A stretch of 64,000 nucleotides of DNA from an uncultured Oscillospiraceae bacterium (GCA_964438605.1 CAYTKT010000005.1:2395-66394), one strand, 5' to 3'; positions 23,039 to 59,954 are shown, counted from the first letter of the stretch. The notes: generated from the letters alone by a model not told the origin. A program made the numbers and translations.

Positions 23039-23195
23039 CTTCCCTCTGCCCGACGATCCTGCTTTCACGGCACATCTGCCCGACAATCCCGCTTGTACCC
23101 GGCACATCTGTCGGACAATCCCGTTTGTACCCGGAACATCTGCCTGACAGTTCCGCTTATATCCGCCATATTTGCCCGCCGATTTCGTTTCCGGC
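23039..23195. repeat. about 5 x 32-bp degenerate tandem repeat (intergenic)
   Basis: Units CACATCTGCCCGACAATCCCGCTTGTACCCGG / CACATCTGTCGGACAATCCCGTTTGTACCCGG / AACATCTGCCTGACAGTTCCGCTTATATCCGC, and so on. They are contiguous, with no spacers. Confidence 0.75.
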
Positions 23196-28075: not shown

Positions 28076-29023
28076 TTATAAATCAAACGCATTTTTAAGT
28101 TCCCTGATATTTGAAAATCCGTTTTCGTGCATATATTCCAAAAGCTCTGCCTTAATGCGCACAGGCGCCGTCGGGTCGGAAAGCGCCGCCGTTCCCACAG
28201 CCACGGCCGAAGCGCCCACAGCGAGAAACTCCGCAGCGTCGGTCCCCTTTGTAATGCCGCCCATGCCGATGACCGGAATATTGACAGCATTAGCGGTCTG
28301 CCACACCATGCGCAGCGCCACCGGTTTTACAGCCGGGCCGGAAAGTCCGCCGACTTTGCGCGCCAGCGTCGCCCTGCGCTTTTTCAAGTCGATATGCATA
28401 CCAAGCAGCGTATTGATCAGAGAAACCGCATCAGCGCCGGCGCTCTCGACAGCCTTTGCAATTTCCACGATGTCCGTGACGTTCGGCGTCAGCTTTATTA
28501 TAACCGGCTTTTTGGAAATCTTCTTTACGGCCGCTGTAACGCGGGCGGCCATCTCAGGCCGTGTGCCGAAAGCAATTCCGCCGCTGCTGACGTTCGGACA
28601 GGAAATGTTGACTTCAAACATAGCAATCTGAGGACAATCGTTAAGGGCGCGGATTGCATCACAATATTCTTCGATTTCATGTCCTGCGATGTTTGCGATG
28701 ATTTGAGTATCGAATTTTTCCAAAAAAGGAAGCTCTCTGCGGCGATATGCTTCAACGCCCGGATTCTGAAGCCCGACGGAGTTCAACATTCCGCCATACG
28801 TTTCAGCGATGCGCGGCGTGTCGTTGCCCGGCCAGGGTTCAGCCGCAATGCCTTTCGTAACTGCAGCGCCAAGCTCATTGATATCGTAAAATTGTCCGCT
28901 TTCTCTTGCCGAAAATGTTCCAGCCGCCGTACAGATTGGATTTTTCAAGCGAACGCCGGCGATTTGAACCGAAAGGTCGATGCCATACTCAGCCGCCTGC
29001 TTATCAGTTTTTGTCATTCCCAA
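28076..29023 (-). CDS. pyrD: dihydroorotate dehydrogenase B, catalytic subunit
   Basis: 315 aa class 1B DHODH pattern (NPICTAAGTF, NISCPN, GMGGI). Confidence 0.9.
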   Translation of the reverse strand: MGMTKTDKQAAEYGIDLSVQIAGVRLKNPICTAAGTFSARESGQFYDINELGAAVTKGIAAEPWPGNDTPRIAETYGGMLNSVGLQNPGVEAYRRRELPFLEKFDTQIIANIAGHEIEEYCDAIRALNDCPQIAMFEVNISCPNVSSGGIAFGTRPEMAARVTAAVKKISKKPVIIKLTPNVTDIVEIAKAVESAGADAVSLINTLLGMHIDLKKRRATLARKVGGLSGPAVKPVALRMVWQTANAVNIPVIGMGGITKGTDAAEFLAVGASAVAVGTAALSDPTAPVRIKAELLEYMHENGFSNIRELKNAFDL

Positions 29024-30255
29024 ATCACCTCGCTTCCCATGAACACAGGGCCGTCCTTACAGACTTTCCGGCGGACTATGAATTCGCCGTTTTCAACGAA
29101 TACAGGCGCCGGTTCGTGCTCATAATCTGCAAAAATTTTTTTTCCGTCCCCATCGGAAAGTTCGGACGCATCTGCTTCAGCGGACGATTCCAAAACGGCC
29201 CTGATTTTACAGACACAACCGACGCAGGCGCCATAACCGCAACCCATGCGTTCTTCCAGAGAAACCTGGATATCGCCGCCCAGCTTTTGCACATATGTAT
29301 TGACAGCTTTGAGCATCGGACGCGGCCCGCACGCAAAATAGAAGTTGCCCCGGACATCACTGGCTTCCAGACCGTCGATAACCGTACCGAGAAAGGCGTC
29401 GACAGTCGGAAGTTCTGTCGTAATAATGACGCGGGCGCCCAGAGCTTTCAGGTCGTCAGTCAAAAACGGCTCCTTGCGAAAACCCGCCACGACGGTGCAA
29501 CGAACTCCCAGTTTTAGCAATTCCTTCGCCAAAAAATACATCGGTGCCGCACCGACGCCGCCGCCGATTAAAACCGCATGAAGCGGTGTTTTAGCACCGG
29601 AAATCAGAGCCGCCGTTTTTGTTTGCTCTGCGGCGGCGGATTTGTGGGCCGCGCTTTCGGTTTCCGGCGCGGCATTTGACGCGAAATCCGCTGTTTTTGT
29701 TTGCTCCATGGTTGCGGATTTATGGGCCGCGCTCTGGGTTTCCGGTGCGGCACTCGACGTAAAAGCTGCTATTTTAGTTTGCTCTGTGGCCGTGGATTTG
29801 CGGACTGCGCTTTCGGTTTCCGATGTTATATTCGATGCAAAAGCCGCTATTTTAGTTTGCTCTGTGGCTGTGGGTTTGCAGATCGCGCTTTCGGTTTCCG
29901 GCACGGCCATCGGGTCCGCAGTTCCCTGCGCGCCCTGCGGGCGCGGCAGAGTAAACCCGTTGCCCAGCGGCGACGACACGCGCACGAGGTCGCCGCTCCT
30001 GCAAGCTGCAAACTCTGCCGTGCCCGCGCCGACGACGGCATACACAAAAGTTACCGTGCCGTCGTCGGGGTCAGCATCGCAGATGCTGACCGGGCGCGGC
30101 AGGATCAACCTGTCGGCGGCCGGATACAGATTCGCAAACTGACCCGGGCGCGCAGCGCCCGCAACTCCGGGCGCCGACAGCGTCATCTTCATAATCCCGT
30201 CTGCAATCTGCTGGTTACTGACGACCTTAGCCTCATAAATCTTTTTTTCAGGCAT
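29014..30255 (-). CDS. pyrK: dihydroorotate dehydrogenase B electron-transfer subunit with about 115-aa repeat insertion
   Basis: FAD-binding barrel (RPVSICD), NAD domain (LIGGGVGAAPMYF) and a C-terminal 2Fe-2S motif (CGYGACVGCVC). 413 aa compared with a typical ~250. Confidence 0.85.
   Translation of the reverse strand: MPEKKIYEAKVVSNQQIADGIMKMTLSAPGVAGAARPGQFANLYPAADRLILPRPVSICDADPDDGTVTFVYAVVGAGTAEFAACRSGDLVRVSSPLGNGFTLPRPQGAQGTADPMAVPETESAICKPTATEQTKIAAFASNITSETESAVRKSTATEQTKIAAFTSSAAPETQSAAHKSATMEQTKTADFASNAAPETESAAHKSAAAEQTKTAALISGAKTPLHAVLIGGGVGAAPMYFLAKELLKLGVRCTVVAGFRKEPFLTDDLKALGARVIITTELPTVDAFLGTVIDGLEASDVRGNFYFACGPRPMLKAVNTYVQKLGGDIQVSLEERMGCGYGACVGCVCKIRAVLESSAEADASELSDGDGKKIFADYEHEPAPVFVENGEFIVRRKVCKDGPVFMGSEVIWE
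29587..29898. repeat. 4 x 78-bp in-frame tandem repeat inside pyrK
   Basis: Encodes ETESAICKPTATEQTKIAAFASNITS / ETESAVRKSTATEQTKIAAFTSSAAP / ETQSAAHKSATMEQTKTADFASNAAP / ETESAAHKSAAAEQTKTAALISGAKT. Confidence 0.9.
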
Positions 30256-42565: not shown

Positions 42566-42825
42566 GATCGAATAACCTCCCGTATTGTCGTTCTTGTCCG
42601 CACCTTTTCATTTTCGTAATGAGCGCAATAATCGCTGATACGACCGGACGTCTGCTGAATCTGAATCACGATTAAGGATGAAAGATAAAAACCGAAAAGC
42701 CGGTTAGGGTTTTCTAACCATCATCCCAAAAAATTGCGGCCGATGCCGCGTTTTTATTAGCTATTGCTAACTCCTATTAGAATGCCATATTTTAAGTCGC
42801 TTGTCAAGTGAAATGCGCCGTCAAA

Positions 42826-43097
42826 TCACGGTCGCCGCCGAGAATTTCTTTTCTCACGTATCGCATTGACGCATCGACAACGAAACGAACAACATTCCGT
42901 GAACGCAGCAGCCATTCTATCATCTTTGAACGCAGAGATTTTGGCGTCAAATAAAGAAGCAATGCTTTTCTTCCAGAAAATCCCTAAACTTCGCTGCCGG
43001 CTTCGTATAAATACTCCTGCCATCGTCGTCAGCCGTTCCGCAGCCGAACAATTCTCCCTGCTCTATCTACCTCGATGTCGAGACAGACGATTGACAT
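42826..43097 (-). pseudogene. possible remnant of a DEDD (DnaQ-like) exonuclease N-terminus
   Basis: The minus strand reads MSIVCLDIEVDRAGRIV.. followed by a stop, then a shifted frame DDDGRSIYTKPAAKFRDFLEE. This resembles the ExoI motif region and is broken by frameshifts. Confidence 0.3.
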
Positions 43098-43289
43098 AAT
43101 CCTGATTTCCTTCCCTAATTATTCTATTTTTAATTTATCTGCACGCTTATCAGACCACATTTTAATATATCCGCAACGTCCGTGCGCCAGAGTTGATCTG
43201 GCCGCTTTTCTATAAAAAAGGACGCAATTTCACCAAAGCGCGAAGTTCCTGCACATATTCTGTAATTCGTAAAAGAAAGCAATCTATCA

Positions 43290-43318
43290 TTGACATCGCT
43301 GAAAATGTAATGTATAAT
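43290..43318 (+). promoter_or_regulatory. perfect consensus sigma-A-type promoter TTGACA-N17-TATAAT
   Basis: TTGACA at 43290..43295, a 17-nt spacer, and TATAAT at 43313..43318. Confidence 0.55.
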
Positions 43319-43483
43319 ATTGGAAAACGTCGGCAGGAAGTCGACGGAAAGATTCAGAAGAATTTTTTAAAGATTACGGATGACATATCTGAAAATCTCT
43401 GTCCACTCCGCACCGTCGCTCGCGATTTGCGCCTGGATCATCCGGAACATGCTGCGATCCGGATTCTAAAGATATCCGACTTT

Positions 43484-43999
43484 GGCGATACCTGCGCCAG
43501 CTGCATTTACACCGATGGCGCGTGCTTCGTCTTTTTTGGATTTGAAAGATGCACTGGCCGTGGCGATACCTGCGTCGGCTGCATTCACACCGATGGCATG
43601 TGCTTCGTCTTTTCCGGACTTGAAAGACGCACCAACTGTGGCGATACTTACATCGGCTGCATTTACGCCGATGTCGCGTATTTCGTCTTTTTCGGATTTG
43701 AAAGATGCACCAGCTATGGCGATACCTGTGTCAGCTACATTTACGCCGATGGCGTGTACTTCGTCTTTCCCGGATTTAAAAAGACGCGCCAGCCATGGCA
43801 ATACCTGTGTCAGCTGCATTTACGCCGATGGCATATGCTTCGTCTTTTCCGGACTTGAAAGACGCACCAGCTCTGGTGATACTTACATCGGCTGCATTTT
43901 TACACCGATGTCGCGTATTTCGCCTTTTCCGGATTTAAAAGATACACCAGCCGTGGAGATATCTGCGTCGATTGTATTTACGTTGGTGGTGTGAGCCGG
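43484..43999. repeat. 6.5 x 78-bp tandem repeat array
   Basis: Units begin with GGCGATACCTGCG...; unit lengths are 78, 78, 78, 79, 78 and 80, then a partial unit. A partial degenerate unit also sits just upstream, at about 43461. Confidence 0.9.
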
Positions 44000-44034
44000 A
44001 CATATATATTTGCGCTTTTTTATTATATACTACG

Positions 44035-44078
44035 AAAGTATGCCTTTCTCAGAGGAGAAGCAGCATACTTTTTTATTT
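44035..44078 (+). terminator. intrinsic terminator
   Basis: AAAGTATGC-CTTTCTCAGAGGAGAAGCA-GCATACTTT followed by TTTTATTT on the plus strand only. Confidence 0.6.
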
Positions 44079-44192
44079 CGGCGCACCTGTCAGATTTTCA
44101 TCCGGACAACAACGGGGAACTCTAAAAAATGAGGCCCCGGATCGTTTATCACCTATAATTACTTATCATCTATATCAAAGGAGGAAAAACGT

Positions 44193-44621
44193 ATGGCATG
44201 TTTTATCGTACCTGCCGCTGAGGCAGTTATCACAACGATTGCGACAAAAGTAATAAAATCAAGAGAGGAAAAAGCTGAAAAAATTGAACTTTCTCCCCAA
44301 AACACCGATGGCGCCGCTTTGGAAATCGCAGAATCAGTGGGAAAAATCCGCCTTTCAAGAAAGCTCAAGTGGCTTTCAAATATGCTCTGGGGCGGCTCTG
44401 TCCTATTGCTGTTTGAACACTTATGGCATGGCGAAGTCGTTGTATGGTTCCCGTTCCTGACATCTGCAGCCACGCCGGCCGGAACGGCTGAAATGTTCAG
44501 AGAAATGGCAACAGTCGGCGTCATGATGTCCCTTCTCGTAACGGTCGTATGGCTCGGTATGGTCGCCGTGACATCGATAATCGAAAAAAAAGCGCTCCGC
44601 CCGCAGCCGGCGTCAAAGTAG
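44193..44621 (+). CDS. hypothetical small membrane protein (142 aa)
   Basis: RBS AAAGGAGGA and 2-3 predicted TM segments. Contains the motif LWGGSVLLLFEHLWHGE. Confidence 0.6.
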   Translation: MACFIVPAAEAVITTIATKVIKSREEKAEKIELSPQNTDGAALEIAESVGKIRLSRKLKWLSNMLWGGSVLLLFEHLWHGEVVVWFPFLTSAATPAGTAEMFREMATVGVMMSLLVTVVWLGMVAVTSIIEKKALRPQPASK

Positions 44622-44637: not shown

Positions 44638-44955
44638 ATGACACTGCTGACGACAGTCTTTGCAGCGATTATCTGTACGATTATCTGGTACCGGACGTTC
44701 CCCAAAAGTCAGATGATGGTCGGCGTCCTGTGTTGGATCTACTGGGGCGCTTCTATCATGTGGTTTGCGGACGCCATTTTTGAATATGCCGAACTTCATG
44801 AGGCATATTTTACGCCCGCTCCGGCTGATATGCTCAACGACTTTTTCCTGGGACTGTCTGTTGTGGCGCTGGGACTGATTATCTATTTGATAATTCTGCT
44901 TGTAAAAGACCCGAAAGGCGTTATCCGCGACGTTCTTTTCAGGAAAAAAGACTGA
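44638..44955 (+). CDS. hypothetical small membrane protein (105 aa), possible paralogue of 44193..44621
   Basis: RBS GGGAGGGA and 3 TM segments. YWGASIMWFADAIFEY resembles LWGGSVLLLFEHLWH in the upstream protein. Confidence 0.6.
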   Translation: MTLLTTVFAAIICTIIWYRTFPKSQMMVGVLCWIYWGASIMWFADAIFEYAELHEAYFTPAPADMLNDFFLGLSVVALGLIIYLIILLVKDPKGVIRDVLFRKKD

Positions 44956-45344
44956 GCAGCGGAAACAGAAACAAATTAAATATATGAAATCAAACGAATC
45001 TGCTGCAAAACAATTTTTATACAAGTTTTTCCCGTTGGCCGACCTGTTGAAAACACCATTTGACGATCAGCTGATTTGCGCAGGCAAAATGCGTACATCA
45101 ACCTGCCGAATAACATATTTTCAAGGCTGCGATTTGGGAAACCTTTTCTAAAACGAGCAAAAATACCAGCGCACAAATACAGCCGGATACGAAAGTGAAT
45201 CCATCAAAACAACATACCCATATCAAATACGCACCGAGCGTCATCGTCTCCGGCTGATTTGCTTTTACCAGGGCCTTTATGAAGCGGTTTCCAACTGTTC
45301 TTATTTCACGATACGGTCTTGGTCTTATAAAAAGAGAGAAACAT

Positions 45345-46121
45345 ATGGACTTAAAAACATTTTTTAAAGAAAACAAAAAAGCCGCTATCGCCTTTTCCGG
45401 CGGCGTAGATTCTTCTTACTTATTATATGCCGCAATCCGTTGCGGCGCTGAAGTCACAGCGTATTTTGTGAAATCGTCTTTTCAACCGGAATTTGAGCGG
45501 GAAGACGCATTGCGCATGGCTGACGGCCTCGGTGCGAAAATCCGCGTTCTTGAAGCGGATATACTGGCTGACCCCGCCGTTACTGCAAATCCGCCGGACC
45601 GCTGTTATTACTGCAAGCACGCTGTCTTCTCCAAAATCAAAAAAGCTGCTGCAGAAGACGGTTATTCCCTGATTCTCGACGGCACTAACGCGTCAGACGA
45701 CGCATCAGACAGGCCGGGTATGCGCGCGCTGAAAGAGATGGCCGTCCGTTCCCCGCTGCGCGAATCCGGTCTTACAAAATCGGAAATCCGCCGGCTTTCA
45801 AAGGAGGCCGGCCTTTTCACATGGAATAAACCGTCATATGCCTGTCTGGCCACGAGGATTCCCTCAAACATGAAAATCACAGCCGAACGTCTGGCGAAAA
45901 CGGAAACGGCTGAAAAATTCCTTTTCGATCTGGGATTTTCCGACTTTCGCGTCCGGATGCTGGCCGACGGTTCCGCGAAACTTCAGGTCACATCAGAGCA
46001 GTTCCCCAAAGTGATCGAAAACAGACAGGAAATTCTTACAAAACTTGAAAAACTGCTGTATACAAACGTCTTTCTCGACATGAAAACGCGCGAAGCGACA
46101 ACCATACCGATGCACAAATAG
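45345..46121 (+). CDS. larE: LarE-type ATP-dependent sacrificial sulfur transferase (PP-loop)
   Basis: AFSGGVDSSYLL PP-loop and a C-terminal LarE-like region. The ATG at 45345 is preferred. Confidence 0.8.
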   Translation: MDLKTFFKENKKAAIAFSGGVDSSYLLYAAIRCGAEVTAYFVKSSFQPEFEREDALRMADGLGAKIRVLEADILADPAVTANPPDRCYYCKHAVFSKIKKAAAEDGYSLILDGTNASDDASDRPGMRALKEMAVRSPLRESGLTKSEIRRLSKEAGLFTWNKPSYACLATRIPSNMKITAERLAKTETAEKFLFDLGFSDFRVRMLADGSAKLQVTSEQFPKVIENRQEILTKLEKLLYTNVFLDMKTREATTIPMHK

Positions 46122-46438: not shown

Positions 46439-47185
46439 ATGAAAAGTGAAACAAGGCAAATCCTAAAAGCCGTCAGCTGTGGCGAAATGTCCGTGGACGA
46501 GGCGCTGCTGAAAATAAAGACGGAGCCCTTTGAGGAACTCGGCTTCGCAAAAGTCGATCTCCATCGCAAGATTCGCCAGGGAACTGCCGAGGTCATTTAC
46601 GGCGCCGGCAAAACGGCCGGCCAGATTATCGAAATTATTGGCGCCATGAAGAAAAACGGCCAGGATAAAATTCTGATTACCCGCCTCAGTGCAGAATCGG
46701 CGGCAGCCATAGCTGAAATACATAAAATAAAATATTACGAAGACGCCAGAGCCGGCATCGTCGGTGAAATACCGCCTGCCGACGGCATCGGAAAAATTGT
46801 CATCGCTACCGGCGGAACGAGCGATATTCCCGTCGCACAGGAAGCCGCGCTGACGGCTGAAATTCTCGGAAATGAAACGATTCGTCTCTACGATGTAGGA
46901 GTTGCGGGGCTTCACCGCCTCCTCGCCCACAAAGAAGAAATCATGAGCGCCAGCGTCATCATCGCTATCGCCGGCATGGAAGGCGCTTTGGCCAGCGTCA
47001 TCGGCGGTCTGGCCGACTGTCCGGTCATCGCAGTTCCCACCAGCATCGGATATGGCGCGTCATTCGGCGGTCTGTCGGCGCTTCTTTCCATGCTGAATTC
47101 ATGCGCCAGCGGTGTTTCCGTCGTCAATATTGACAACGGCTTCGGTGCGGGCTACATCGCCAGTATGATCAATCATATGAAATAA
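46439..47185 (+). CDS. larB: nickel-pincer cofactor biosynthesis protein LarB (PurE-like carboxylase/hydrolase)
   Basis: 248 aa with an N-terminal LarB extension plus an AIR-carboxylase fold (IATGGTSDIPVAQEAA, AIAGMEGALASV). Confidence 0.85.
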   Translation: MKSETRQILKAVSCGEMSVDEALLKIKTEPFEELGFAKVDLHRKIRQGTAEVIYGAGKTAGQIIEIIGAMKKNGQDKILITRLSAESAAAIAEIHKIKYYEDARAGIVGEIPPADGIGKIVIATGGTSDIPVAQEAALTAEILGNETIRLYDVGVAGLHRLLAHKEEIMSASVIIAIAGMEGALASVIGGLADCPVIAVPTSIGYGASFGGLSALLSMLNSCASGVSVVNIDNGFGAGYIASMINHMK

Positions 47186-47248: not shown

Positions 47249-48658
47249 ATGAAAATATTATATCTCAACTGCTCCATGGGCGCGTCGGGCGATATGCTGG
47301 CGGCCGCTCTGACAGAGCTTCTGCCCGATCCGGAGGAATTTCTCGCGGAAATCAACTCTCTGAAAATTCCCGGCGTAAAAATTGAAATGGAGCCTGCCGT
47401 CAAATGCGGAATTGCAGGAACACACATCACCGTATCTGTCGAAGGCAAACAGGAAAATGAAGCGTTATCCGGCCATTCGCATGAAGATGACCACATTCAT
47501 CCGCATGAGCGCGAACATAACAATCCATATTATCACGAGCATAATCATTTAAATCCAAATAATTTAGAAAATAATAATTTTCTATCCAGCGAGTTCAATG
47601 ATAATCCTATTCAAATTCATACGCACCATCACAGTGGGATGACGGAAATAAGCCACATCGTAAATGACTTCAATCTTCCTGAAAATGTAAAGCAAGATAT
47701 TCTAACGGTTTTCGGCCTGATTGCCGAAGCGGAGAGCGCCGTTCACGGTACTCCCGTTCCTGAAATCCATTTTCACGAGGTTGGCACAATGGACGCCATC
47801 GTCGATGTCACTGCTGTCTGTATGCTGATGAACAAAATTGCTGCCGACGAGGTAATCGTATCGCCTATCCATGTGGGCAGCGGCCAAGTCAGGTGCGCTC
47901 ACGGAATTCTTCCCGTTCCCGCTCCGGCAACAGCATATATTTTAAAAAACATTCCGATTTACGGCGGCAAAATCGACGGCGAACTCTGTACGCCGACAGG
48001 CGCTGCCCTGCTCAGACATTTCGCAACGAAATTCGGCGATATGCCCGTCATGAAGACGAATGCCATCGGATACGGCATGGGAACAAAAGATTTTGAAGCG
48101 GCTAATTGTCTGCGCGCCATGCTCGGTGAAACCGTTAAAACCGGCAAAACGAAAACTACCGGTTGTTCCCGCACCCTGCCCGGTGAAGTTTGCGAAGCGG
48201 AGAATCGTTCAAATATCGTGCTGGAACTCTCGTGCAACGTCGATGACATGACAGCTGAAGCCATCGGCTTTGCAATGAAACGCCTGCTCGAAGGCGGTGC
48301 CCTCGAAGTCTACACTGTTCCCATCGTGATGAAAAAATCCCGTCCCGGTACGCTGATCCGCGTCATGTGTCAGGAGGATAAGCGCGAGGAAATGATTACC
48401 CTGTTGTTCTTGCATACGACAACAATCGGCATCCGCGAAACGATTACGCACCGCTACATTCTAAAACGTGAAATCGAAACATTCAACACACCTTACGGCA
48501 GCGTCCGCCGCAAAAATTCAACCGGGTACAACATAACCCGTTCAAAATGGGAATACGACGATCTGGCGCGTATTGCAAAAGAAAAAAACACGAGCTTTGA
48601 AAACGCACGTCAGCTCGTGGAAGAATCAATAGAATCGCAATCCGACAAATCCGATTGA
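47249..48658 (+). CDS. larC: nickel insertion protein LarC (single ORF, His-rich loop)
   Basis: MKILYLNCSMGASGDM start, a His-rich segment (HSHEDDHIHPHEREHNNPYYHEHNH...HTHHH), and EVGTMDAIVD. Confidence 0.9.
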   Translation: MKILYLNCSMGASGDMLAAALTELLPDPEEFLAEINSLKIPGVKIEMEPAVKCGIAGTHITVSVEGKQENEALSGHSHEDDHIHPHEREHNNPYYHEHNHLNPNNLENNNFLSSEFNDNPIQIHTHHHSGMTEISHIVNDFNLPENVKQDILTVFGLIAEAESAVHGTPVPEIHFHEVGTMDAIVDVTAVCMLMNKIAADEVIVSPIHVGSGQVRCAHGILPVPAPATAYILKNIPIYGGKIDGELCTPTGAALLRHFATKFGDMPVMKTNAIGYGMGTKDFEAANCLRAMLGETVKTGKTKTTGCSRTLPGEVCEAENRSNIVLELSCNVDDMTAEAIGFAMKRLLEGGALEVYTVPIVMKKSRPGTLIRVMCQEDKREEMITLLFLHTTTIGIRETITHRYILKREIETFNTPYGSVRRKNSTGYNITRSKWEYDDLARIAKEKNTSFENARQLVEESIESQSDKSD

Positions 48659-54432: not shown

Positions 54433-54486
54433 CCTTTTCCTCCTGTAAGCTGCCTGCGCTGCATTATCTTATTTTCTATTTCCCTG

Positions 54487-54765
54487 AAAGTGGCCTTTCG
54501 CCGCTGCCTCATACTTTGTCTATTTTTTTGGCAGGCGGCTCGCGCCGTTGCCCGCGCATTTTCTCTATTTATCCGCATTATCCTCAGTTCTTCTGCATCG
54601 CGTTTTCACATTTTTTTATTTCTCTGCAGGCGGCTTTTCGCCGCCGCTTCGTGCTTTTCCTATTTTTCCGCAGGCGGCTCGCACCGTTGCCCGCGCATTT
54701 TCTCTATTTATCCGCATTATCCTCAGTTCCTCTGCATCGCGTTTTCACATTTTCTCATTTCCCCG
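54487..54765. repeat. 2 x 139-bp tandem duplication (intergenic)
   Basis: GCAGGCGGCTCGCRCCGTTGCCCGCGCATTTTCTCTATTTATCCGCATTATCCTCAGTTCYTCTGCATCGCGTTTTCACATTTT occurs at 54531 and again at 54670, about 95% identical. The flanking sub-unit is also duplicated. Confidence 0.85.
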
Positions 54766-54799
54766 CGGGCCGCCTCTCACCATCGTCACGCACTTTTCA

Positions 54800-55981
54800 T
54801 CATTTTAAAATTTTTCCAAGAAACGAAATCCCGTTTTCCGGCATTCCGACGCCGAGATAATCGCAGACAGACGCTCCCACATCAGCAAAAGAGTTCAAAA
54901 CACCGAGATCAACCTGCCTGGCCACCTTTTCGCCGTACACGAGCAGCGGCACATATTCACGCGTGTGATTCCACCCGGAATGAACAGGATCGTTCCCGTG
55001 GTCGGCGCAGATGATCAGCAAGTCGTCATATCTCATCCTGTCGAGGACAGCCGGCAGCATGGCATCAAATTCCTCAAGCGCCGTAGCATATCCCGCCGGA
55101 TCCCTCCTGTGGCCATACATCGAATCAAAATCGATCAGATTCGTAAATATCAGTCCGTCTTCACACGACGCCATATATTCCGCAGTCCGGTACATTCCAT
55201 CGGCATTCCCGTTCGTAAAAACAGACGAGGTAATTCCCTTCCCGTTAAAAATGTCCTTGATCTTTCCAACGGCACAGACTTCCTGTCCCGCTGCGCTGAT
55301 CCGGTCCAGAATCGTATCGGCGTAAGGATCGAACGTATAATCATGACGGCCGCTGATCCTCGTATAAACGCCGTTTCGCTCGACAAAAGGCCGTGCGATA
55401 ACGCGCCCCACAAGCCATTCGCCCACCAGCAGCTTCCGAGCAATTTCGCAGTATTCATAAAGCTGTTCCATCGGAATGACTTCCACATTTGCTGCAATCT
55501 GAAAAACGCTGTCCGCCGATGTGTAAACAATCGGAAATCCGGTAGAACGGTGTTCATCGCCTAAAGCCTTAATAATTTCCGTGCCCGACGCCGAATAATT
55601 TCCGAGAACCTGACGGCCGATAGCAGCTTCAAACGCCGTGATGAACTCCTTCGGAAACCCCGTGTCAGTAAACGTTCTGAATGGTTCATCCATCAGAAGT
55701 CCACAAATCTCCCAGTGTCCCGTAATCGTGTCCTTGCCCTCGGAGCGCTCCGCCATTTTTCCAAATGCGCCGCGCACCCTGCCGCCGTAAGACGGCAGAC
55801 CGCTTCCGGGAATGGAAGACAATCCAAGAGACGACAGATTTGGAAGTCTGATCCCTGGATTCCTCTCAACAACATGGCCAATCGTGTTTGCCCCTGCATC
55901 GCCATAAAGCTGCGCGTCAGGCAGTGCACCGATGCCAACGCTGTCCATTACGATCAGTATCACTCTGTTTTTTTCATTCAT
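54800..55981 (-). CDS. deoB: phosphopentomutase
   Basis: 393 aa with the DeoB pattern: VILIVMDSVGIG, GHWE, ADHGNDP. Confidence 0.9.
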   Translation of the reverse strand: MNEKNRVILIVMDSVGIGALPDAQLYGDAGANTIGHVVERNPGIRLPNLSSLGLSSIPGSGLPSYGGRVRGAFGKMAERSEGKDTITGHWEICGLLMDEPFRTFTDTGFPKEFITAFEAAIGRQVLGNYSASGTEIIKALGDEHRSTGFPIVYTSADSVFQIAANVEVIPMEQLYEYCEIARKLLVGEWLVGRVIARPFVERNGVYTRISGRHDYTFDPYADTILDRISAAGQEVCAVGKIKDIFNGKGITSSVFTNGNADGMYRTAEYMASCEDGLIFTNLIDFDSMYGHRRDPAGYATALEEFDAMLPAVLDRMRYDDLLIICADHGNDPVHSGWNHTREYVPLLVYGEKVARQVDLGVLNSFADVGASVCDYLGVGMPENGISFLGKILK

Positions 55982-56885: not shown

Positions 56886-57135
56886 GCACCAGTTGCACAA
56901 AAACATCTCGCCTTGCAAACACAGCCGCACCGACTGCGCAAATATGTCTCATCCCGCAAACACACATGCGCCGACTGTTCCGTCACATCTCATCTCGCAA
57001 ACGCACTCGCACCGACTGTTCCGTCACATCTCATTTCGCAAACGTACCCGCACCGACTGTTCTGTCACATCTCATCTCGCAAACGCACCCGCACCAGTTT
57101 TGCAGTCACATTTCATCTCACAAAAACAGCCATGC
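56886..57135. repeat. about 6 x 41-bp degenerate tandem repeat (intergenic)
   Basis: Unit GTCACATCTCATCTCGCAAACGCACYCGCACCGACTGTTCC, with an exact 41-bp phase at 56982, 57023, 57064 and 57105. Confidence 0.8.
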
Positions 57136-57688: not shown

Positions 57689-59587
57689 TTACTTTTTCTT
57701 TGGAGCTTCAACTTTCTTCATCTTATCTTTTGTCGCTTCCGCAATCTTTCTGAGTTCCGGCTTGGAAACCTTACCGTTATTCAGAAGTGGAAATTCATCG
57801 ACGAACCAGTAGTAGGACGGAATCGACAGCGTAGGAGTTTTGCCGACACAGAATGCTCTCAGTTCTTCCGGCTTCAGAGTGGAACCTTCCTTAAGTCTGC
57901 AGAACGTGCCGACAATTTCACCGTACTTGTAATCCTTTACGCCAATTACATAAGCCTCCTCAACGTCAGGGTGCGATGTGAGAACTTTTTCAACTTCTCC
58001 CGGACTGATATTTTCACCGCTGCGAATGATAATATCCTTAAGTCTGTCACCGATCTTCAGATAGCCATTGTCCAGCAGACTTCCCATATCGCCCGTTCTG
58101 AGCCAGCCGCCGTCAATAAACGTAGCCTTCGTCTTTTCAGGCTCACCCAGATAACCCATCATCAAACTGTATCCTCTGACACAGATTTCACCAGGGCCCT
58201 TCGGGCCGACATCCTCCAGTGTTTCCGGATCGATAAACTTGATTTCAACGCCAGGCATAATTTCACCGACGCTGCTGCCCTTCAACTCAATCGGATCAGA
58301 TGGTTTCGTACCCGACACACAAGGCGACGTTTCCGTCAGACCATAGCAGATAATGATATTCTTCATATGCATGATCTCCTCGATCTCGCGAACCATCTTC
58401 TCCGGACAAGGCGCGCCTGCCGTGATCCCCTTACTCATGCAGGAAACTTCATACTGGCCAGGATTCTTCTTAAGTTCATCGATAAAGCCGATAAACATAG
58501 TCGGTACGCCGCAGACGACCGTGCAGCGTTCTCTCTCGATCATCTTCAAAGATTCCGCCGGCTTGAATCTGCTCGTCAGCACGATCGGCATACCTTTGTG
58601 AATCGAAGGCAGACAGGACGCAACCGAACCGAACGTATGGAAAAGCTGAATCTGCATACACATCTTGTCCTCATGCGTCAAACCCATCTGATTCGCCATC
58701 GTATACGAATTCTCAACGATATTCAGGTGAGACAGCATTACGCCCTTCGGGAAACCCGTACTTCCGGATGTGTAAATGATATACGCCAGATCCTTTACCG
58801 TAAACGCCGCTTTTGCCGCTTCAAGCTGCGTGTCATCCATTTTACGGCCTTCTTCCATCGCCTTGTTAAAATCATATACGCCCGGATAATCAAACTGATC
58901 CGTCGCATCGACGAGAATAACTCTCTTGAGCAGCGGCGCCTTTTCAATCGACAGTTCGCCGTACTTCTGCGTCTTGATCTCAGGATACATATCATCAGCC
59001 AGCATTTCAATATTTTCGTGAACTTTTGCGCCCCGGTACAGGATAAACGTGGAAACCTGAGATCTTCTTACCAGTTCTTCCATACGATCCTGTTTTTCAT
59101 ACGGTGTAAAAGCGATCATGACAGCGCCGATCTTGCTGATTGCGTATGAGGCCGTCAGCGATTCGATGCCATTTGCCATCCACAAACCTATATGATCCCC
59201 CTTCTTAATCCCGATGCTCAGGAGATATTTCGCAAACGCCGTTGAATTATCATTAAACGTCTTGTAATCAATTCTTCTCGTCCCGTCGAAGGAAATCAGC
59301 GCTTCCTGATCCGGATAGAGCTTCGCAGTTTCTTCCAGAACATCACCCACCTTCAGATCGAGCAGCCGTTCAATCTCAGCGTCGTATTCTTTGCCGCCGA
59401 CATTGATCTTCGCAGTATTAACACCGGAAATGAGTTCCTGCTTCTTCGCAAGCTCAGACAGAGCAGCCGTCAATTCTGCGTCAGCTCCTTTCGGGCTGCT
59501 GATTACACTGCCGTCGAGTGCTTTAAACGTCCAAATGCCTTCTTTCAGCGTAATTATGACTTTTCTGCTTTCATCAACAAAACCCAT
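57689..59587 (-). CDS. AMP-forming acyl-CoA synthetase/ligase family protein with about 75-aa N-terminal extension
   Basis: AMP-binding signature IIYTSGSTGFPKGV, with TGD and GKV motifs near the C-terminus. Confidence 0.85.
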   Translation of the reverse strand: MGFVDESRKVIITLKEGIWTFKALDGSVISSPKGADAELTAALSELAKKQELISGVNTAKINVGGKEYDAEIERLLDLKVGDVLEETAKLYPDQEALISFDGTRRIDYKTFNDNSTAFAKYLLSIGIKKGDHIGLWMANGIESLTASYAISKIGAVMIAFTPYEKQDRMEELVRRSQVSTFILYRGAKVHENIEMLADDMYPEIKTQKYGELSIEKAPLLKRVILVDATDQFDYPGVYDFNKAMEEGRKMDDTQLEAAKAAFTVKDLAYIIYTSGSTGFPKGVMLSHLNIVENSYTMANQMGLTHEDKMCMQIQLFHTFGSVASCLPSIHKGMPIVLTSRFKPAESLKMIERERCTVVCGVPTMFIGFIDELKKNPGQYEVSCMSKGITAGAPCPEKMVREIEEIMHMKNIIICYGLTETSPCVSGTKPSDPIELKGSSVGEIMPGVEIKFIDPETLEDVGPKGPGEICVRGYSLMMGYLGEPEKTKATFIDGGWLRTGDMGSLLDNGYLKIGDRLKDIIIRSGENISPGEVEKVLTSHPDVEEAYVIGVKDYKYGEIVGTFCRLKEGSTLKPEELRAFCVGKTPTLSIPSYYWFVDEFPLLNNGKVSKPELRKIAEATKDKMKKVEAPKKK

Positions 59588-59954
59588 ATATGACCTCCTA
59601 TACTTTCTAAATCGACATAAAAAATCAGAATGATTCAGCCCGTGTGCATAGATATAATATGTATGCGCAACATCCTCATTCTGATTATATGCTTCGGCAT
59701 AAATTTTGTCAATTATATGTTTGTAGATATTATGTTTGTTGTCACAATTTTATCAAAAAATCTGCTGACTTCTCCAACGGCCCTGAAACTTTTCCCTAAA
59801 AAATCGTCCAAAAAACCGTTCCGAACCCGTTTCCGACCCCATAGATTTACTGTCCGCTCTCCACTCGTAATCCTGCGGCCTGCAAACTCCAGCTTCAAAC
59901 AAGCAAGTTTCAGACAAGCAACGCCCGTCTCACAATTTTCTTCAAAATTCCAGT

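Follow-up and report, generated by a model that had tools for sequence, protein, structure and literature searches.

A private 78-nt tandem array in the linker of a conserved, apparently undescribed leader RNA of lar operons

LarR is a known transcription-factor regulator in Lactobacillus, and we know of no description of how synthesis of the nickel-pincer cofactor (LarB/C/E) is regulated in Clostridia. Here we examine a 64,000-nt stretch of DNA from an uncultured Oscillospiraceae bacterium (GCA_964438605.1, CAYTKT010000005.1:2395-66394; the whole stretch is referred to as the window), in which a perfect promoter, 6.5 tandem 78-nt repeats and a terminator (43290..44078) precede an operon containing larE, larB and larC. 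An earlier note on this DNA had described these elements as an orphan transcription unit without a credible gene. The unit is not an orphan: its two ends are modules of a leader RNA that recurs upstream of the same operon head in other species, and the repeat array lies in the linker between them.

Described regulatory RNAs resemble this leader in part. Attenuators of the NiCo (czcD) riboswitch type (RF02683) share with it a near-consensus promoter, a covarying 5' leader, a terminator that competes with an upstream helix and a position immediately before metal-related genes. Unlike the NiCo riboswitch, the lar leader consists of three separate small hairpins with GAA loops and has no multi-helix junction, its effector may be a protein, and no Rfam family matches either the window or the leaders of six relatives (Rfam 15; for the six leaders, no family at E<=0.1). 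ANTAR proteins (EutV, NasR, AmiR) bind paired sites in which two hexaloop hairpins, each with A as loop nucleotide 1 and G as loop nucleotide 4, lie next to each other, the second overlapping the terminator. The lar leader likewise has small hairpins with conserved loop nucleotides, one of which overlaps the 5' arm of the terminator, so that binding there would prevent termination. However, its loops are penta- and tetraloops with GAA, and the hairpin that overlaps the terminator (P3) is distant, beyond a variable linker; near the lar leader, no gene for an ANTAR protein was seen. Small hairpins, a conserved loop closed by C-G and a linker of variable length and sequence are also features of the guanidine-II riboswitch (mini-ykkC), but that riboswitch has an ACGR loop rather than NGAA, controls translation and comprises two hairpins, compared with three hairpins and a terminator in the lar leader.

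The array has likenesses of its own. Mycobacterial interspersed repetitive units (MIRUs) are tandem units of 40-100 bp in the transcribed noncoding DNA of operons, with degenerate edges and higher-order repeats, as in the array described here; MIRUs, however, are scattered over many loci, and the number of their copies differs from strain to strain, whereas the array is known from one locus in one genome. CsrB and RsmZ are RNAs running from promoter to terminator with several similar hairpins that carry GGA in the loop. The array differs from them in that it has no Rfam match, its GGA lies in a CCGGA palindrome, its units are 78 nt long and have diverged in a neutral-looking manner, and it sits in the cis leader of an operon.

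Leader modules and the lar operon

The leader and the operon that follows it comprise these features:
43290..43318, plus strand: sigma-70 promoter of exact consensus, TTGACA (43290-43295) N17 TATAAT (43313-43318)
43327..43368, plus strand: leader 5' module, hairpins P1 and P2 (covariance model R1)
43328-43346, plus strand: hairpin P1, cgucggc AGGAA gucgacg
43347-43368, plus strand: hairpin P2, gaaagauuc AGAA gaauuuuuu
43369..43482, plus strand: left linker, unique sequence with three small hairpins and a degenerate partial repeat unit at its end
43483..43999, plus strand: tandem array, 6.5 head-to-tail units of 78 nt (Tandem Repeats Finder [TRF] and manual unit boundaries)
44000..44021, plus strand: right linker end, AT-rich
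44022..44078, plus strand: leader 3' module, P3 and terminator with U-tract to 44078 (model R2, nhmmer and folds)
44026-44042, plus strand: antiterminator hairpin P3, uauacu ACGAA aguaug, overlapping the terminator (44034-44072)
44193..44621, plus strand: p142, first gene of the operon, encoding a 142-amino-acid membrane protein; Shine-Dalgarno (SD) sequence GGAGG at 44180-44184
44638-44955, plus strand: p105, encoding a second small membrane protein
45279-46121, plus strand: larE
46439-47185, plus strand: larB
47249-48658, plus strand: larC

Scanning one genome per GTDB species gave 80 loci (L005-L084) with p142 homologues of 50-66% identity. Two covariance models were built with the window left out, R1 for P1 and P2 from 14 other species and R2 for P3 and the inner terminator stem from 22 other species. 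The R1 seed alignment had 92% of its cells paired and compensatory double changes at all 11 pairs; this covariation was reached by none of 500 shuffles, and pairing fell to 26-41% in slid controls. The R2 seed alignment was 97.7% paired. In the window, R1 gave one significant match (43327-43368, 32.4 bits, E=3.8e-6), and R2 matched 44022-44078 (45.6 bits, E=4.4e-10), a site also found by a separate nhmmer profile (E=1.3e-5). Among the 80 loci, R1 had matches in 24 and R2 in about 30, and every match lay just upstream of p142 (examples are L020 4132-4247, L007 4807-4923 and L035 4788-4912). At least 23 species from the Lachnospirales and Oscillospirales carry the leader, among them a cultured one, Massiliimalia massiliensis (strain Marseille-P2963T, L035 4788-4912).

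The order of elements in relatives (promoter, P1, P2, linker, P3/terminator, SD sequence and ATG of p142) is the order seen in the window. P1 carries an A-N-G-A-A pentaloop, P2, which follows P1 within a few nucleotides, an N-G-A-A tetraloop, and P3 again A-N-G-A-A; GAA is invariant in the loops of all three hairpins. When folded with RNAfold, every relative showed a terminator of -15 to -31 kcal/mol whose 5' arm consists of the GAA of the P3 loop together with the 3' arm of P3, and P3 and the terminator are thus mutually exclusive, an arrangement classic for an antiterminator and its terminator. The p142 homologue begins 19-144 nt downstream of the terminator across the leader family; in the window, the ATG of p142 lies 114 nt after the R2 match. 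The minimum free energy fold of the full 761-nt leader contained P1, P2 and the terminator, with the array paired with itself. Between the end of R1 and the start of R2, the linker measures 14-100 nt in 23 relatives, compared with 653 nt in the window, and no conservation was found within it in relatives. Of the 653 nt, ~90 nt are unique sequence, and the rest consists of the array with its degenerate edge units. No lar-linked riboswitch or RNA motif was found in the searchable literature, and on comparative grounds the leader is apparently a conserved, undescribed regulatory RNA.

Much of what the earlier note had reported about the limits of the unit held up. The exact-consensus promoter is present on the plus strand at 43290..43318, and its -10 box ends 9 nt before the start of the R1 match; in relatives, a near-consensus promoter likewise adjoins P1 on its upstream side. 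Promoter sites with at most one mismatch numbered 5 in the window, compared with 0.37 per window in dinucleotide shuffles. The terminator, too, is specific to the plus strand: its hairpin (44034..44072, -16.8 kcal/mol) is followed by UUUUUUAUUU, the U-tract extending to 44078. The note's statement that no SD sequence with an ATG follows the predicted start of transcription was borne out and extends to ATG, GTG and TTG on both strands from 43319 to 44192, except for the start of the downstream gene itself. Logan short-read contigs from SRR14209496 and SRR14209493 matched the window with 100% identity on both sides and both end within the array. The description of a plus-strand noncoding unit with a real-looking promoter and terminator stands. 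However, because the promoter, the first 45 nt and the terminator are conserved leader modules, this unit forms the 5' leader of the operon that follows it, and the promoter at 43290..43318 is that of the leader and the lar operon.

By their NCBIfam names, the lar genes serve nickel-pincer nucleotide cofactor synthesis. Neither p142 nor p105 matched a Pfam or NCBIfam family; p142 carries an FEHLWHGE motif. The two genes are kept as a pair across Clostridia, usually at the head of lar operons: among the 80 loci, p105 directly follows p142 in nearly all, and lar genes come next in about half. Their products may form a metal transporter. Upstream of the leader, synteny of the DUF3793 gene was not conserved in relatives. 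In at least 14 leader-bearing loci (e.g., L020 3620-4087), the end of a DUF3842 gene lies just before the leader promoter, and in four others this gene is found downstream of p105; it does not occur in the window, and it may be part of the same functional unit as the leader and operon. In the window, ~720 nt (42566-43289) separate the DUF3793 gene from the lar promoter; they contain no credible open reading frame (ORF), and bidirectional terminator-like hairpins occur there at 42690-42750. The sole other perfect TTGACA-N17-TATAAT of the window is on the minus strand (59684..59712), ~95 nt upstream of the ORF at 57689-59587.

The 78-nt array in the linker

The earlier note's array and its unit lengths of 78, 78, 78, 79, 78 and 80 nt were reproduced, with these units on the plus strand:
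43483-43560, 43561-43638 and 43639-43716, plus strand: units 1-3, 78 nt each
43717-43795, plus strand: unit 4, 79 nt (+1 nt)
43796-43873, plus strand: unit 5, 78 nt
43874-43953, plus strand: unit 6, 80 nt (+2 nt)
43954-43999, plus strand: partial unit, 46 nt

TRF reported a 78-nt period over 43483..43981 (6.4 copies, 79% matches) and also a higher-order period of 235 nt, or three units, with 85% matches. Units 1 and 4, 2 and 5, and 3 and 6 pair up as a duplicated three-unit block, and units diverge from each other by 10-27%. At the left edge, a degenerate partial unit makes up the last ~28 nt of the left linker (about 43455-43482). The only indels are the +1 (A) of unit 4 and the +2 (TT) of unit 6, and the latter is present in both independent Logan contigs. 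The units stand head to tail with no spacers, in contrast to a CRISPR array, and ARAGORN found no tRNA or tmRNA in the window. Insertion as a mobile element was considered and rejected, as the array has no terminal inverted repeats and no target duplications.

The earlier note could match the array to no known family, and our searches agree. Translations of the minus frame ("GASFKSG...") and of the plus-strand ORF at 43482-43994 had no match among 5.8 billion protein clusters, and phmmer of the minus-strand ORF against 1.84 billion representatives returned three spurious repeat proteins only. Pfam gave sub-threshold noise only for the array translations, a profile search of the PDB and a search of viral contigs found no match to the array protein, and exact-protein look-ups had no record of the array ORFs. 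At the DNA level, a unit hidden Markov model run against the window and the 80 related loci detected only the array itself and no paralogous unit, a hairpin-pattern scan yielded three single chance matches and no array in metagenomes and no match in viral contigs, and blastn of the array region found nothing among plasmids and phages. Judged from these sequence collections, the array appears private to the genome under study. It is known from one strain, and even the closest homologue of p142 among 5.8 billion proteins shares only 66% identity. Three other tandem repeats in the window, at 23045-23178 (32 nt x 4.2), 54472-54806 (139 nt x 2) and 56947-57124 (41 nt x 4.3), are seemingly intergenic and have no coding-like frame, and the genome seems prone to minisatellites. 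Unrelated tandem repeats of 73-74 nt occur ~1 kb upstream of the lar leaders in two relatives (L015 1734-1988 and L011 1335-1550).

One reading offered by the earlier note was that the array is a decayed repeat-protein gene. Three of the six reading frames are free of stops through all units, and in the minus frame the unit is 26 codons long and encodes a 26-residue repeat, GASFKSGKDEAHAIGVNAADAGIAT. Over the array lie a 117-amino-acid ORF on the minus strand (43466-43819) and the plus-strand ORF at 43482-43994, which takes in the "AIPASAAF..." frame and a portion of the "GDTCV..." one. A codon-usage log-odds score was trained on 26 long genes from the window. The minus frame scored 0.238; real genes in 26-codon windows scored 0.31 +/- 0.18, and 1.5% of stop-free out-of-frame windows reached 0.238 or more. 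AlphaFold2 without an alignment predicted an all-beta repeat for the 117-residue ORF, with a pLDDT (predicted score of the local distance difference test) of 83 and a predicted template-modeling score (pTM) of 0.75, compared with a pLDDT of 32.5 for the plus-strand ORF used as a control. For repeat sequences, confident AlphaFold2 models of unrealistic beta-solenoids have been documented (PMC11795689), and a Foldseek search with the model found only generic solenoids (E>=0.16). The minus strand of the array is A-rich, as are the coding strands in the window. Pairwise differences between units appeared three-periodic (44/78/93), but the signal was gone when independent variable columns were counted (7/13/11, p=0.4), and it was dropped. 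The ratio of nonsynonymous to synonymous polymorphism (pN/pS) was ~0.5-0.6 in the minus frame, and the plus frame that shares its wobble position gave the same value. An intact repeat-protein gene was not found: the frame has two frameshifts, no SD sequence or start, and no homologues. Moreover, because the array sits within a conserved leader, a gene cannot have originated or decayed in place there. What survives of the note's reading is soft support for a gene as the origin of the unit, by way of a translocated fragment that then expanded; a minisatellite that arose de novo is also possible. A second 78-nt tandem repeat in the window (29608-29901), consisting of four 26-residue repeats (ETESA..K..A.EQTK.AAF.SN), is a coding insert in a PyrK-like flavoprotein (ORF 29014-30255, minus strand). 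Kinship between it and the array was rejected, since the sequences are unrelated.

A structured repeat RNA had been a further proposal of the earlier note, which had also reported a hairpin in most units with changes compatible with G-U pairing. The hairpin (CGTCTTT-N10-AAAGAYG) is indeed present in units 1-5 and is damaged in unit 6. It is also a DNA palindrome and thus exists on both strands alike. The T/C change falls on the third codon position of two stop-free frames, and the two changes in the hairpin of unit 6 are mismatches on the plus strand and wobble pairs on the minus strand; the G-U-compatible change is therefore no evidence for an RNA structure on the plus strand. Units 2 and 3, the two that were folded, had z-scores of -0.2 to -1.8, no better than shuffles, RNAalifold gave weak consensus folds that differed between strands, and no convincing strand-specific covariation among units was detected on either strand. 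The Rfam search that the note had suggested returned nothing at the gathering threshold in the whole window; at E<=10, the only hit was to STnc450, below threshold (20.9 bits versus 37), and nothing relevant appeared. We also considered a sponge for CsrA. GGA trinucleotides number 15 on the plus strand and 9 on the minus strand, and each unit has one GGA, in a CCGGA context (palindrome TCCGGA) within an 8-10-nt loop. The idea was set aside as less likely, because the GGA lies within a palindrome and shows no notable strand bias.

A model for the leader and its competitors

We consider it probable that the array is a minisatellite specific to this lineage, one that may have started from a piece of a gene, and that it is transcribed along with an apparently undescribed attenuator RNA of the lar operon, as a passenger in the variable linker of that RNA. 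In the model that we propose, a strong and probably constitutive promoter would start an RNA whose first 45 nt form P1 and P2, and a factor (a protein, a small ligand or a metal) would recognize the invariant GAA loops. Once bound, the factor would stabilize P3, so that RNA polymerase would read on into p142-p105-larE-larB-larC; in its absence, the terminator would form. The linker between P2 and P3 is free to vary. The array itself may have grown from a seed unit to a three-unit block that was then duplicated, leaving older degenerate units at both edges, and part of a gene for a 26-residue-repeat protein, landing in antisense orientation, may have supplied the seed. Although transcribed within the leader, the array would most likely be tolerated as a passenger and have no function of its own that depends on its sequence. 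In the window, the promoter matches the consensus at 12 of 12 positions and the P1 and P2 stems are intact, whereas divergence between array units reaches 10-27%. If the units diverged in place, this suggests that selection continued to act on the leader modules after the array had appeared.

Several observations weigh against this interpretation. Transcription through an untranslated leader of 750 nt into the operon has to be assumed, and a linker 6.5 times as long as the longest in relatives may impair the switch. The window modules score lowest among clear matches (32 and 46 bits versus 35-44 and 52-74). Differences between units (43483-43953) comprise 30 transitions and 3 transversions, a ratio far above that usual in bacteria, for which a passenger minisatellite offers no explanation. 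Finally, the codon usage of the minus frame is gene-like, and its translation yields a confident structural model.

The linker length and the low module scores would also fit an insertion that broke the switch, leaving the old promoter to make a dead-end terminated RNA while p142 and the lar genes are expressed from a secondary promoter within 44079-44192. P3 is weak in the window (-2.6 kcal/mol versus -3 to -10 in relatives), and a perfect TATAAT lies at 44154-44159. That TATAAT, however, has no acceptable -35 element and is absent from the promoter-scan list, and the pairings of P1, P2, P3 and the terminator have remained intact, along with the perfect promoter, despite the divergence of the units; we regard a broken switch as unlikely. 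The array might instead be a functional RNA module, either because the terminated RNA of ~750 nt, with its 6-7 hairpins, titrates an RNA-binding protein in trans, a sponge or decoy role for which CsrB/RsmZ and the riboswitch-derived EutX/Rli55 offer parallels, or because the array serves in cis as a timing spacer. A strong promoter and a terminator would yield an abundant, discrete RNA, each unit offers a 7-bp hairpin with GGA in its loop, and the leader modules have apparently been maintained with the array in place. Because all copies of the unit descend from one ancestor, however, the recurrence of the hairpin is not independent evidence, and it occurs equally on the minus strand; the GGA context is CCGGA rather than A-N-GGA, the unit loops lack the A-N-G-A-A and N-G-A-A motifs of the leader, units 2 and 3 fold like shuffles with no consistent strand-specific covariation, and the array is found in one genome only. 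A function as RNA is thus a somewhat weaker candidate than a broken switch, and the earlier note's proposal of a structured repeat RNA gains no support.

The two remaining alternatives are considerably less probable. A minus-strand gene for a beta-solenoid-like protein with 26-residue repeats, whether live (the 117-residue ORF) or decayed in place, would account for the stop-free 26-codon frame, its codon-usage score and pN/pS, the A-rich strand and the contrast between the AlphaFold2 model and its plus-frame control. However, the repeat frame lacks an SD sequence or start, one of its two frameshifts is confirmed in independent assemblies, its variable columns are not three-periodic, a plus frame gives an equal pN/pS, neither a homologue nor a specific structural match was found, and beta-solenoids are a known artifact of the method. 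Given the position inside a conserved leader, only a translocated fragment is possible, which the favored reading already allows as a seed, and we consider a gene at this site very improbable. Least probable of all is the earlier note's third reading, an array of protein-binding sites at the DNA level, either an operator or a centromere. The centromere sopC consists of 43-bp units, each with an inverted repeat, and the 7-bp inverted repeat of the units (CGTCTTT-N10-AAAGACG) gives the array a formal likeness to it. The array nonetheless lies inside a transcribed leader in a chromosomal housekeeping context, with no partition or replication genes among the surrounding ORFs and no plasmid or phage match, and conservation of the inverted repeat does not exceed that of the remaining unit sequence, unit 6 having lost it, which leaves this proposal without support.

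Beyond the favored reading of the array as a passenger, a bolder suggestion concerns the leader itself. It is conceivable, though we would not yet expect it, that the leader represents a new class of riboswitch or riboregulator for nickel-pincer cofactor synthesis and a putative metal transporter, one that senses Ni/Co, a cofactor intermediate or an RNA-binding protein through its three GAA-loop hairpins and tolerates a 650-nt minisatellite between sensor and terminator. Such tolerance would imply that the hairpins are independent binding sites rather than parts of one folded aptamer.

For genome scanning, the locus carries a caution: a perfect promoter, repeats and a terminator can together amount to the ordinary leader of an operon, with a minisatellite private to one genome inside it. 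The leader family is the object of interest here, and the array is a curiosity that marks a place where insertion is tolerated. In this respect the window is a natural experiment, in which ~650 nt of repeat DNA between the two halves of the leader constrains models of how the hairpins cooperate. The lar leader thus offers a testable candidate regulatory RNA for a metal-cofactor pathway.

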